This document shows positions 12,963 through 31,825 of a DNA stretch of 64,000 nt, piece by piece (position 1 is the stretch's first letter; each line of letters starts with the position of its first letter). Position numbers and translations under genes: made by a program. The DNA comes from a virus. The stretch lies in IMG/VR virus record IMGVR_UViG_3300030380_006185, positions 32,001 to 96,000 of that record. The stretch is one strand, 5' to 3'. The notes below the pieces were generated by a model that worked only from the letters and a program-made list of their open reading frames with translations, had not been told where the DNA came from and did not search any database.

Positions 12963-13388
12963 TTAGTATTCACTTCCAGCTGAGTTTCTAGTATTTGTTA
13001 AGGAACTTAAATTTAATGAAGTGTTATTAGATAATTCATCTAGATTAATATTTGTTTGATTTTCGATTGAAGTTTTTTGAATATTTAATAATTCAGTTCG
13101 TAATTGAGCTATTTCATTTTGAAGAGCTTCTATGATTTCATTTTGTTCTTCAAAACCTATATATTCACTGCTTTTTTTAATTAAATACTCATGAGAATTT
13201 ATAGGTCCTAATTCATTTATACTATAAAATAACTCATCATATAGTTGAAAAAATTCTTCAACAGTAGGAACTTGTTCAAGTTGTTCTTGTATAGTTTTAA
13301 CCCCTAATTGTTTAAAAGAAGTATCAATAATTCTCTCATATTGTGCTTTATTAAATACTTGTTTATTAAATTCTACATTTTTACTCAT
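12963..13388 (-). CDS. Hypothetical structural-module protein with C-terminal coiled coil
   Basis: ORF track; EALQNEIAQLRTELL heptads. Confidence 0.5.
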   Translation of the reverse strand: MSKNVEFNKQVFNKAQYERIIDTSFKQLGVKTIQEQLEQVPTVEEFFQLYDELFYSINELGPINSHEYLIKKSSEYIGFEEQNEIIEALQNEIAQLRTELLNIQKTSIENQTNINLDELSNNTSLNLSSLTNTRNSAGSEY

Positions 13389-14509
13389 CCGTTAATAACT
13401 TTAAAATAATAATCATCATCAAGTATTAAAGTAGAACCACCAATTTCAGTTTTAATTAAAACTTTATAATATCTTTCAGGTTCTAAACCACTCATATAAA
13501 CATCAAAATAATTTCCTCTATTATCAGAAGAAATTTGGGTATATTTAGTATCGAAATTAATAACAAATTCGTTAGTAGCCAAGTCTTTTATTGCATAAAA
13601 TGAAGAAGAAGGTAAATAGTTTGTATTTGTAAATAAAGAACTTGTTTGATAAGTTCGAGTAGGATATAAAGGACTTACATTTATATAAAATCTATTTATA
13701 CTACTAGGAAAAAATTCACCTGGATTATCATCAAGAGATAATTTGATTTGTTTAGTTGACACAATGGAAGAGGAATCAGGGGTTATTGTAGTATAATCCC
13801 TCCATCTAAATTCTAATTGGGGAGGATAGATTGTATTTGTATCTACACTGTAGTATTTGAGGATAGGTTGATTATCCAAATTTGAATCAAATTCAGAACT
13901 TGAGCTTAATTTTGTTAAAAACCCATAATTAGGGATAGATCCACTATACCATAAATTCACAACATCTTTTACATTTAACTCTAAATCTTTTTCAGATCTT
14001 AATCCAAATGATTCTGTAATTTGGGGAATTAAAGTTGAAGATGTAAACCAAGAACCGCCACCTTGTGATGAAAGTGTTGAATCAAATGAACCTGTATATC
14101 CATATCCATTGATACTACCACTCATATTCCAAATACTTGATCCTGAGGTGTTTCTGTAAGACCAAGAGGCTCCATCTGTTACATTGGGTATATCTAAATA
14201 ATGCCCTGTTCCATTATTCCAAGATTGGGCTAAAGGAAAAATTTCTAATTCTACATCAGTATTAATACCTTGAGCTGTTGAGATATTGTTTTGTAAATAA
14301 ACATCAAATTCACTTCCTGAGATTTTATTATTAATAATATCTTGGATTTCGGTTGTATCAAATTCAATTAAATATCTTGATATAATAGGATTACCATCTA
14401 TATTTATAGTATTTGATGCTTCTAAAATAGCATCTAATCCTGTATTCATAGTAGGGTAATATGAATATAATGTAGTATCCTTAGTAGGGAATATTTTATA
14501 AACGGCCAT
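13385..14509 (-). CDS. Virion structural protein (DNRLRE/CBM96-like fold)
   Basis: KDTTLYS...NTG, SRYLIEFD, QSWNNGTG, NYGFL, PQLEFRW pattern. Confidence 0.45.
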   Translation of the reverse strand: MAVYKIFPTKDTTLYSYYPTMNTGLDAILEASNTINIDGNPIISRYLIEFDTTEIQDIINNKISGSEFDVYLQNNISTAQGINTDVELEIFPLAQSWNNGTGHYLDIPNVTDGASWSYRNTSGSSIWNMSGSINGYGYTGSFDSTLSSQGGGSWFTSSTLIPQITESFGLRSEKDLELNVKDVVNLWYSGSIPNYGFLTKLSSSSEFDSNLDNQPILKYYSVDTNTIYPPQLEFRWRDYTTITPDSSSIVSTKQIKLSLDDNPGEFFPSSINRFYINVSPLYPTRTYQTSSLFTNTNYLPSSSFYAIKDLATNEFVINFDTKYTQISSDNRGNYFDVYMSGLEPERYYKVLIKTEIGGSTLILDDDYYFKVING

Positions 14510-24916: not shown

Positions 24917-25204
24917 TTAAGTTGTTATAATTACAGTAAATTCACCAGTTCCCCTAAATTTTACCCCACAAACAGGAACATCAACCGCATTATTAAAGTT
25001 AAAAGATGACGTACCGGGAGGTATAACTTGACTCCATATATAATCAGATTGAACCACATGATCAGGATTAGAATTAACAAAACCATCAAATGAACCCGAT
25101 GCGTATTTACCCGAACTAGAGTCATAAAAACCATTATAATTCCTTACGGTCTCAAAGGTAAAATATGATGAACCTGAAGGATTATGAAATGTATAATTTG
25201 CCAT
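24917..25204 (-). CDS. Hypothetical late/structural protein
   Basis: ORF track; ATATTTATAA upstream. Confidence 0.5.
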   Translation of the reverse strand: MANYTFHNPSGSSYFTFETVRNYNGFYDSSSGKYASGSFDGFVNSNPDHVVQSDYIWSQVIPPGTSSFNFNNAVDVPVCGVKFRGTGEFTVIITT

Positions 25205-26353: not shown

Positions 26354-26635
26354 TTACTTAGTTTTAGTTATCCACTTATTATTTACATACTTACCAATTA
26401 CCAAACTACCATCAGCCATTAATCTAACTGTAAGTGTGTACACTCTTTTCTTACCTGTATATTTACTTACATCATTATACCACACCTTAAATGTATCACA
26501 GTTCCAATTGTTCCATACTTGAGCAATATCAAGATTTGGGTATCTAGACAGAACAAACTTTTTGACATCTACATTATTAACCATTACTTTTTCCCTTAAC
26601 ACCATTACATTTTCCATAAATCTCATTTTAATCAT
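26354..26635 (-). CDS. Hypothetical early protein
   Basis: ORF track; follows the promoter copy at 26640-26673. Confidence 0.55.
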   Translation of the reverse strand: MIKMRFMENVMVLREKVMVNNVDVKKFVLSRYPNLDIAQVWNNWNCDTFKVWYNDVSKYTGKKRVYTLTVRLMADGSLVIGKYVNNKWITKTK

Positions 26636-26904
26636 ACCACAATATACGAACCAGCACTCGCTAACCCTCTACCCTTGATATCTTGGCTGAGCATCTGGTT
26701 ACGTAGATCGTAATTTGGATCGTATCCGCACGCTTTGAGTACCATGTACAATGTTTTCCAACGTGTTTCTAGGTGGCGATAATGCTTGCTATCTGTACCA
26801 TATAACTCTTTCCACTCATCTTGTGCTACCCATGATTGCGCCTCTAATTTTTGCATGATTGCTATTGTACCTCTCTTTGTCATATACTTTTGTTTTTTGG
26901 TCAC
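26632..26904 (-). CDS. Hypothetical protein
   Basis: ORF track (start uncertain, possibly ATG at 26883). Confidence 0.5.
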   Translation of the reverse strand: MTKKQKYMTKRGTIAIMQKLEAQSWVAQDEWKELYGTDSKHYRHLETRWKTLYMVLKACGYDPNYDLRNQMLSQDIKGRGLASAGSYIVV

Positions 26905-26907
26905 CTA

Positions 26908-27085
26908 AAGCCCTACACATGGGTTGGTGTAGAGCCGTTGGCGATTGTATAATTAAAAAAGATATGGGTTTTATTTTGATGGCTAAAACCCTTAAACCAA
27001 ATATCTATACTCACCTCGCTGCTCCCCTCTATTTTAAGCAACCCAACCATTTCTTGGTCATTCCTCTCGCCGAGGTGAGTAATAC
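26908..27085 (-). ncRNA. Candidate structured RNA
   Basis: Three stems: ACUCACCUCG/CGAGGUGAGU, GGGUUUUA/UAAAACCC, and GCUCUACAC/GUGUAGGGC (U-G wobble only on the minus strand); loop CAACCCA complementary to UGGGUUG. Confidence 0.5.
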
Positions 27086-27092
27086 CAATTTC

Positions 27093-27296
27093 TTATTTAA
27101 ACCTACCGTACTGTTTTTTCATACCAAGTACTTCTTGTATCTCATCACTACTAATACCACCCTCACTTATAGGTGCATCCAATAGTATCTTCATCATTTG
27201 CATTACGATTGTATACTCACCAGTTTTATTAGCATCATCCAACAATCCTAGTTTCATCTCTTTACTCAATCCCAACAACATTTCTTTTTCAAACAT
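27093..27296 (-). CDS. Hypothetical early protein
   Basis: ORF track; own promoter copy. Confidence 0.6.
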   Translation of the reverse strand: MFEKEMLLGLSKEMKLGLLDDANKTGEYTIVMQMMKILLDAPISEGGISSDEIQEVLGMKKQYGRFK

Positions 27297-27352
27297 ATTT
27301 CTTTTTTTAATTATACTACAATATACGAACTATCTATCTAAACTGGTATTCA

Positions 27353-30461: not shown

Positions 30462-30511
30462 ATTTTATCTTTTTAATTATACTACAATATACAAATTTTT
30501 ATTAAATAACA

Positions 30512-30532
30512 GAAGTCCTTTAACAGGACTTC
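30512..30532 (-). terminator. Hairpin overlapping the upstream promoter box
   Basis: GAAGTCCT-5nt-AGGACTTC. Confidence 0.55.
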
Positions 30533-30554
30533 CATTACTATATATAATTAAAAA

Positions 30555-30968
30555 TTAACTCTTAAATTCTTTACTTACAAAATCCTTAACCATATTATTA
30601 ATTAATTCTTTAATATCAATTCCTTTATCAATACCATTTAATATTAATTCTTTTTCAATATTTCTTTTACAATTATAATCAACACTTCCTACAATATTAA
30701 ACAAATTTTTATTTTCCTTATAACCATATCTTCCTACACTATTATAAGTAATTCTAATATTAAATTCATCATTAACCTTATTAACAAAATCATTTAATTC
30801 ATTTTCTAATTTTTCCTTTTTTAATTCTACTTCTCTTAATTCCTCTAATAAACTAAAATCAACATTTTCATTAACAATTTTTAAACATTTATCATTAACT
30901 TCCTCTACAACTTTACTATAAACTTCATTACTAACAACATCTAACTCAATTCTACTTAATTTACCCAT
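30555..30968 (-). CDS. Early protein, essentially C-free gene
   Basis: A single C in 414 nt (one Thr codon); no A/P/Q/H; own promoter. Confidence 0.75.
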   Translation of the reverse strand: MGKLSRIELDVVSNEVYSKVVEEVNDKCLKIVNENVDFSLLEELREVELKKEKLENELNDFVNKVNDEFNIRITYNSVGRYGYKENKNLFNIVGSVDYNCKRNIEKELILNGIDKGIDIKELINNMVKDFVSKEFKS

Positions 30969-31650: not shown

Positions 31651-31825
31651 AATATCTTTTTAATATACTATAATATACGAATAATCTTTTTATAATAAAC
31701 TTCCTGGGTAATATAGGTTTGTTTGGTTGGGTACAAACCTGAAAACCATCCCGTTACCTCTTGCATTACTCAGTAACCCGCTAGCAAACATTGTAATCCC
31801 CGTTCTAGTAGGGTAATAAACTATT

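Follow-up and report, generated by a model that had tools for sequence, protein, structure and literature searches.

A candidate anti-leader riboregulator complementary to the early-gene leader of a marine phage related to Flavobacterium phage immuto

Three kinds of described element appear to be the closest analogues of the RNA reported here: the c4 antisense RNA of phages P1 and P7, the small RNAs that derive from 3′UTRs or tRNA trailers and, for the repeated promoter units, the promoter-early stem-loop (PeSL) cassettes. c4 RNA is processed by RNase P. CpxQ and 3′ETS-leuZ are enterobacterial sRNAs of the 3′UTR and tRNA-trailer type; they are host-encoded and Hfq-dependent, and are aimed at host mRNAs or sRNAs. 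The hosts of the phages considered here lack both Hfq and Shine-Dalgarno-led initiation, and their RNA-based regulation is poorly understood. According to PMC8198154, which refers to Citron & Schuster 1990, c4 belongs to the immI operon (c4-icd-ant), lies upstream of its target and shares a transcript with it. In T4-type phages, PeSL cassettes have been described as recombination substrates (PMC2839356, PMC4122927). A search by terms of a recent review of phage sRNAs (PMC12197685) yielded no regulator of a leader common to a temporal gene class.

The window analysed here is a stretch of 64,000 nucleotides, bases 32001-96000 of a 156,273-bp viral contig with 28% GC. The interval under study is the gap between two early genes on its minus strand, ORFs of 67 and 83 aa, and consists of two separable units in minus-strand (gene-sense) orientation, a cassette and a near-invariant 3′ module. 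Roughly 100 nt long (26901-27007, minus strand) and built as hairpin, single strand and hairpin, the module would be transcribed as the tail of an early transcript, behind the swappable cassette. Its putatively single-stranded centre, which we call the anti-leader, is the antisense of a leader and start-codon region common to at least 12 early mRNAs. We propose, tentatively and with slightly less than even confidence, that the anti-leader is a riboregulator that base-pairs with leader-type translation starts and blocks ribosome loading.

As with c4, the proposed RNA is phage-encoded, structured and tRNA-sized, its target shares its promoter and lies downstream, short exposed segments would pair with the downstream start, and there is a link to tRNA-type processing. 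It differs from c4 in lacking sequence or structure homology to it (no Rfam match at any threshold), in belonging to an apparently lytic phage of a Flavobacteriia-type host, and in having its complement in a dozen or more genes, compared with c4's one operon. With CpxQ and 3′ETS-leuZ it has in common a sense-strand seed behind a stop codon or tRNA, single-stranded, directly 5′ of a terminator-type hairpin and in no need of its own promoter. Its predicted targets, however, are the phage's own early leaders, and the second hairpin of the module has a tail of just three U and is followed by a gene. T4-type PeSL cassettes resemble the early region in combining a repeated terminator and early promoter before small early genes, with modular swapping between them, whereas an inverted, leader-only copy on the transcribed strand falls outside the PeSL description.

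Genome setting and early promoters

Related contigs are of marine origin, and the nearest isolate is Flavobacterium phage vB_FspM_immuto (hereafter immuto), cultured with Flavobacterium sp. LMO8 and showing 43% amino-acid identity in the baseplate wedge protein and synteny with the window's genome. The phage appears to be a lytic marine one with a Flavobacteriia-type host. Of 212 crude ORF calls in the whole genome, 207 are on the minus strand. The baseplate proteins gave the sole clear family matches in Pfam and PHROGs; the same databases returned nothing usable for the neighbouring 67-, 83-, 93- and 98-aa proteins, the 2 kb around the site had no match in GenBank phage DNA, and the element is single-copy in the genome by BLAST. 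Both genome ends (1-120 and 156150-156273) lie in one run of 15-nt tandem repeats of the CTTCCTGTATCAGCA type, within a coding region, and the assembly is probably circularly permuted or repeat-broken. More than 20 structural or late genes (e.g. window 24917-25204 and 13385-14509) carry a late-type motif, ATATTTATAAYAAAA, 10-15 nt 5′ of the ATG, distinct from the early cassette. immuto encodes a 7-deazaguanine DNA modification set (DpdA, QueC/D/E/F and FolE; record 18-37 kb). The window's genome had no match to the TGT/DpdA family, and we found no evidence of guanine modification in it; if present, such modification could matter for the early genes, whose template strand is poor in G.

The true start of the 83-aa gene is ATG 26883; a GTG at 26904 was rejected, since in one relative (L002) its frame contains a stop codon. 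Relatives of the 83-aa protein are only close ones within its own phage group, and tblastn against GenBank phages was empty. Its AlphaFold model is helical (pLDDT 81), with no significant PDB match and a weak likeness, at E above 2, to the influenza NS1 RNA-binding domain and to Dps. The gene's final codons (GSYIVV-stop; window 26632-26690, minus strand) double as the -7 box and the beginning of the leader for the early promoter that comes next, so that protein C-terminus and promoter are co-constrained.

The leader is defined by a 13-mer core, GTATAATTAAAAA, which at up to one mismatch occurs 16 times in the window against 2.1 expected; none of 100 shuffles reached 16. Thirteen copies lie on the minus strand, 12 of them ahead of early genes at 27.3-32 kb, and the plus strand holds one exact copy (26947-26966) and one with a single mismatch (30542). 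Across the 156-kb genome the exact core is found seven times on the minus strand and once on the plus strand, where 0.043 copies are expected. The full early cassette reads AGGAAT - N21 - TTYGTATATTRTA - GTATAATTAAAAA - N5-12 - ATG, and the cassettes in the window align to 17 early cassettes of immuto with the form GTTGC - N19-21 - TATATTTAG - GGTATCAATAATTAAAAC - ATG.

Promoters of Bacteroidota have the consensus TTG at -33 and TAnnTTTG at -7. The first two boxes of immuto fit a promoter of this type, with the conserved leader coming after them, and because they fit it, the conserved block 3′ of the boxes would be transcribed. By homology, TATATT is the putative -7 box in the window's phage and GTATAATTAAAAA would be the 5′ end of early mRNAs, not part of the promoter; the sequence-only reading from which this study set out had chosen well in calling it a leader. 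Initiation of the Flavobacteriia type relies on an unstructured, A-rich leader instead of a Shine-Dalgarno site. The promoter family follows the pattern TATATT-N3-GTAT...AATTAAAA. Its upstream box is AGGAAT in the window (27.3-47 kb) and in two related lineages (L093, L192), and GTTGC or GTTTGGC, a host-like -33 box, in immuto, L110 and others. This combination of one -7 box and leader with two different upstream boxes hints at different recognition factors. Coordinates of the features are collected in Table 1.

Table 1. Position and nature of the features discussed, in window coordinates
Feature	Coordinates	Strand	Description
Early promoter and shared leader of 67-aa gene	27294-27352	minus	From motif counts and cassette alignment; box order by homology with immuto
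AGGAAT-like box of this promoter	about 27345-27352	minus	
-7-type box TATATT of this promoter	27320-27325	minus	
Leader core GTATAATTAAAAA of 67-aa gene	27304-27316	minus	ATG at 27294-27296
67-aa early ORF	27093-27296	minus	No family match; own early promoter; transcript continues into the RNA elements
tRNA-sized multi-stem RNA cassette	27008-27081	minus	Closing stem P1, optional small hairpin P1a, P2, P3; covariation
UUUGGUU, 5′ strand of alternative closing stem	26995-27001	minus	Partner GACCAAA at 26896-26902; RNAalifold consensus
Hairpin 1	26966-26991	minus	8-bp stem (3 GC), 10-nt loop; invariant in relatives
Anti-leader CAUAUCUUUUUUAAUUAUAC	26947-26966	minus	Exact antisense of early leader core and AUG region
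Extended hairpin 2	26901-26944	minus	Outer stem UCGCC/GGUGA, 3x3 internal loop, 10-bp stem, 8-nt C-rich loop, then CUUUA; covariation
83-aa gene start region GUAUAUG ACA AAG AGA GGU A	26868-26887	minus	Predicted cis partner of the anti-leader
83-aa ORF	26632-26883	minus	True start ATG 26883; no own promoter; helical fold; no family match
Second anti-leader site	30511-30554	minus	UUUUUAAUUAUAU at 30542-30554, overlapping the stop of a 137-aa gene (30555-30968); 8 nt; hairpin 30511-30533; next early promoter

The 3′ module and the cassette upstream of it

The 3′ module, which we compared across 34 related loci that carry the 83-aa gene, runs from UUUGGUU through hairpin 1, the anti-leader and extended hairpin 2 to the A-rich leader of the 83-aa gene. 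For the whole interval, cassette included, the fold energy is -60 kcal/mol (z -4.3) on the minus strand against -46.5 kcal/mol (z -2.7) on the plus strand. At 26947-26966 the plus strand reads GTATAATTAAAAAAGATATG. The sequence-only reading had taken this for an antisense copy of the leader, and the copy is real, lies on the transcribed strand and hardly varies among more than 30 relatives. As that reading had also said, the inverted copy is without the promoter half: neither TTYGTATATTRTA nor, 21 nt further up, AGGAAT is present. All 22 distinct sequences of alignment A6 have the same anti-leader core, CUUUUUUAAUUAUAC, although their flanking coding DNA is about 85% identical, and the core is kept in nearly all of the module-bearing loci read; one locus (L040) is a single U shorter, and the core has diverged only in L023 and L031.

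Hairpin 2 covaries (UA/CG and AU/GC). The invariance of hairpin 1, one of the stems predicted by the sequence-only reading, leaves no covariation signal either way; the reading's other two, the long stem of the junction discussed below and hairpin 2, do covary. Its suggested loop pairing, CAACCCA/UGGGUUG, has to be given up: the loop of hairpin 2 varies uncompensated, the partner lies inside stems supported by covariation, and hairpin and loop persist in L002 and L017, where the partner is missing. RNAalifold favours a closing stem, UUUGGUU/GACCAAA, that leaves the anti-leader free, with 97% of cells paired and zero double changes.

The module resembles intrinsic terminators in that hairpins are followed by U residues, equivalent hairpins in related lineages have U5 tails (immuto and L192), and hairpin 2 occupies the position of U-tract terminator hairpins behind anti-leaders in other lineages. 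Unlike intrinsic terminators, hairpin 1 has a 10-nt loop, against the 3-8 nt of our criterion, and a U6 run that begins 3-5 nt after the stem instead of 0-2 nt; the covarying 10-bp stem of hairpin 2 is followed by CUUUA only, with three U where we asked for at least five in eight, and a gene without a promoter follows. The consensus terminator scan called neither hairpin, and with regard to the terminator alternative offered by the sequence-only reading, hairpin 1 is not of canonical form. A supposed terminator signature, UUUUUAAUUA, was also discarded, having just five sense-strand occurrences in 156 kb.

The cassette upstream is a three- or four-way junction with compensatory changes in every helix. 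Its stems have 95-97% of cells paired and 5-6 double-change pairs, and 0 of 500 shuffles reached the observed covariation (16 distinct sequences). Many of its pairs are G-U (UG in 11 of 16 and GU in 12 of 16, for example) and would become A-C mismatches on the plus strand, which places the cassette RNA on the minus strand, in agreement with the strand assigned by the sequence-only reading. What that reading described as one structured RNA is structured, as its proposed covariation check on homologs bears out for the cassette helices and hairpin 2, and yet is made of two modules, of which the 5′ one is swappable. In L002 a tRNA-Gly(UCC) stands exactly in the cassette's place, in L017 the cassette is absent, and further, unrelated closed-stem RNAs come after it in L011/L015, L014 and L026/L030; the extra modules of L011, L014 and L026 have no homologue in the window's genome. 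A riboswitch with the cassette as aptamer and hairpin 1 as platform, another alternative of the sequence-only reading, appears unlikely because the cassette is exchangeable for a tRNA or absent; in L011, L014 and L026 the would-be aptamer is parted from hairpin 1, and the platform is unchanged in these cases.

The cassette is tRNA-like in its size of 72 nt and in one reading of the closing stem as 7 bp. It is not a recognizable tRNA: it drew no ARAGORN call and no Rfam tRNA match, and the T loop and anticodon loop are missing. In the whole window, nothing but five tRNAs (47.5-48.7 kb) passed the Rfam gathering threshold. With the limit relaxed to E of 10, the segment 26850-27150 gave chance-level matches only, at 12-19 bits, with C4 antisense RNA, riboswitches, ribozymes and tRNA all falling short; the Rfam search called for by the sequence-only reading assigns no family to the element. 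In L192 the cassette slot (L192:1358-1466) holds a match to the Rfam tRNA model that scores 31.7 bits against a threshold of 29. This sequence carries 39 extra nucleotides at the anticodon loop, drew no ARAGORN call and may be an intron-bearing or degenerate phage tRNA. Directly 5′ of another early promoter, a strongly folding, C- and G-containing non-coding stretch of the window (about 31706-31814, minus strand), with a perfect hairpin whose loop is ACCCAACCA, may be a further RNA cassette of the same slot type.

Anti-leaders in other lineages

Many lineages with differing leader cores were recovered from IMG/VR with a promoter pattern that immuto and the window's phage have in common, and in each we looked for its own leader in reverse complement. 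Within the 78 kb of immuto that were read, its leader core has exactly one antisense copy on the sense strand, GTTTTTAATTATTGAT, which directly follows the gene 136 stop codon and is separated by 8 nt from a GC-rich hairpin ending in a U5 tail; a 14-nt match is expected 4e-3 times and a 16-nt match 2e-4 times. Three relatives of immuto (L069, L096 and L151) carry an anti-leader at the same site. immuto and three other uncultured lineages each have one or two sense-strand antisense copies of their own, differing leader core, each just 5′ of a GC-rich hairpin. L110 has two, complementary to its leader of the TATAATTAAAACA-type core (TATAATTAAAAACA); both are preceded by a stop codon and followed by a GC-rich hairpin, and the expectation is 6e-4 for each. 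L192 has a tRNA-model match, then an anti-leader, then a U5 terminator, and L147 has a homologue of hairpin 1, an anti-leader and a different hairpin, beyond which an unrelated gene has an ordinary promoter of its own. In L202 the anti-leader TTTTTAATTATAC matches that lineage's own leader, GGTATAATTAAAAAA, and lies behind a protein 56% identical to that of immuto gene 136; between these orthologous sites the anti-leaders differ exactly as the leaders do, including the complement of a 4-nt insertion. The order stop codon or tRNA, anti-leader, hairpin is common to independent lineages.

The window has a second site of this layout (Table 1), which is conserved in L003 and L019, with its sole change in the hairpin loop. 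In the complete related genome G001 (168 kb), the main leader core has no antisense counterpart even when one mismatch is allowed, and the region read of Microcystis phage Mel-JY01 holds no leader cassettes. An IMG/VR scan with the immuto anti-leader pattern returned chance matches only, the 271-aa late protein as query for related loci gave no match, and immuto gene 136 has no homologue in the window's genome.

Pairing in trans and in cis, and the alternatives

When the anti-leader was scored by duplex energy against 212 gene starts, a leader-pairing comparison that the sequence-only reading had recommended, early leaders took all of the best eight places, with energies of -12 to -16.7 kcal/mol against a mean of -6.5 kcal/mol for shuffled anti-leaders. 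In the 102-nt module, an RNA that ends at hairpin 2, the anti-leader is predicted to be 75% unpaired, and the net cofold binding of this RNA is -12 to -17 kcal/mol for nine of 12 early leaders. The display of the antisense segment envisaged by the sequence-only reading stands in this form, as a segment that is complementary to early leaders and that, in an RNA with its end at hairpin 2, is predicted to be unpaired. Like a trans-acting antisense sRNA, the anti-leader has a seed that is complementary to target starts and more conserved than its flanks. In full-length transcripts of the window lineage, by comparison, it would be mostly sequestered in cis, with a predicted unpaired probability of 0.1-0.3.

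The cis partner is the start of the 83-aa gene, and one alternative is that the anti-leader acts purely in cis, as a translational operator that silences, couples or delays this gene, its matches to other leaders being a by-product of a leader-like start. Over 22 distinct sequences, 98.3% of the cells in this helix of 17 pairs are paired, and its five G-U pairs work on the minus strand only. It belongs to the minimum-energy fold of most variants, where it is favoured by 2-8 kcal/mol (with and without the helix, -36.3 and -32.8 kcal/mol in the window, -41.2 and -36.4 in L001, -42.8 and -34.8 in L010). The distant loci L023 and L031 lack hairpin 1 and keep the helix, with a new G that pairs with the C of codon 2, and L036 and L039 have gained AAUUAAAAA in the leader where the partner in the coding region is broken. 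Among the loci recovered, all of them by way of the 83-aa gene, that gene always comes with an upstream anti-leader-type segment and hairpin 2. Yet in L032, L035, L038 and L040 the partner is broken (AAAACGAGG) and the anti-leader is unchanged. The main alignment contains zero double compensatory changes for the helix, and slid-register controls reach 50-74% pairing, the arms being of low complexity. Moreover, L147, immuto, L110, L192 and L202 have anti-leaders without the 83-aa gene, before unrelated genes with their own promoters, and the second copy in L110 matches the leader of the next gene worse than it matches four other leaders. We consider a purely cis role unlikely. The most economical reading is that the conserved property is complementarity to the common early leader and that the 83-aa gene is a lineage-specific cis target.

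A second alternative, which we judge improbable to a similar degree, dispenses with pairing altogether. The segment would be an AU-rich spacer, a U-tract or an RNase site between hairpins that protect a 3′ end and a 5′ end, punctuating the transcript behind the tRNA-like cassette, and its likeness to an inverted leader would come from its origin as an old inverted piece of a promoter cassette, kept leader-like by gene conversion; only in this form, as concerted evolution, does the relic cassette suggested by the sequence-only reading survive. The early region is an array of near-identical promoter cassettes and hence a recombination substrate like the PeSL of T4-type phages (PMC2839356, PMC4122927), a T6 run follows hairpin 1, same-position hairpins elsewhere bear U-tracts, and the intermolecular pairing has no proof from covariation. 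Gene conversion among repeats, not selection for pairing, could also produce the co-variation of leader and anti-leader. Against this, in at least four lineages and at orthologous sites, the inverted copies always comprise the leader part only, with the same boundaries and never with the -7 or -33 boxes, and they are always on the transcribed strand and beside a hairpin. The core is more conserved than the flanking coding DNA, and hairpin 1 departs from a terminator in loop and spacing. The variants, furthermore, are wobble-compatible: an A to G change in L023 and L031 and a C to U change at the second site preserve RNA pairing and not DNA identity.

It is also conceivable, although we regard it as very improbable, that the anti-leader and the next leader, which flank a hairpin and in most lineages a promoter, form an inverted repeat at the DNA level, as sites of inversion or recombination for an invertible promoter or cassette shuffling. 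Invertible promoters are common in Bacteroidota, and the order repeat, terminator, promoter, repeat is found in immuto, L110, L147, L192 and L202. However, the segments between the repeats are just 65-100 bp long, and the window has no promoter between the arms, of which the right one differs at six of 20 positions, with wobble pairing in RNA as the only match that is kept. Recombination with the inverted copy would be open to any of about 25 leaders and would be destructive, and none of more than 35 loci shows an inverted-orientation variant. Finally, a plus-strand promoter or small gene that drives antisense transcription over the cassette and the 67-aa gene, as a TATAAT-like core followed by ATG 26964 (ORF of 73 aa, or 108 aa from an upstream TTG) might suggest, is scarcely credible: by immuto homology the core is a transcribed leader, an early promoter at 26947 would lack both the -33 and the TATATT -7 box in upstream sequence that varies among relatives, in relatives the ORF at ATG 26964 is anywhere between 18 and 151 aa long, and both the gene orientation of the genome and the G-U pairs point to a minus-strand RNA.

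The anti-leader likely functions through pairing with leader-type start regions, and it may plausibly silence many early mRNAs in trans. On the mechanism that we propose for the riboregulator, a discrete RNA that ends at hairpin 2 would be released 3′ of the tRNA-like cassette and would pair with early leaders in vivo, with repression as the outcome. In read-through transcripts of this lineage, the anti-leader would in addition fold onto the start of the promoter-less 83-aa gene and repress it in cis, and the two modes of action would be compatible with each other. The duplexes of anti-leader and leader are A-U rich and their energies modest, and the RNA is made from an early promoter alongside its proposed targets. 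With about 25 leader-bearing promoters to one or two anti-leader copies, the RNA would have to be stable for reasons of stoichiometry. A wider scheme is possible, if on balance doubtful: the phage family may time the shut-off of its early class by a stable anti-leader sRNA, matured from the trailer of a tRNA or tRNA-like RNA or from a 3′UTR, that blocks Shine-Dalgarno-independent initiation, with leader and anti-leader co-evolving and with the 83-aa gene gated and de-repressed by free early leaders.

Whatever the function, promoter and leader can now be told apart in this phage family, and a slot has been defined in which tRNAs and unknown RNAs of tRNA size replace one another. If the proposal is true, one RNA would switch a whole temporal class of phage genes, which would explain why an identical leader is kept on dozens of unrelated early genes. 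The idea is testable, since a cultured phage, Flavobacterium phage immuto, bears the same device.
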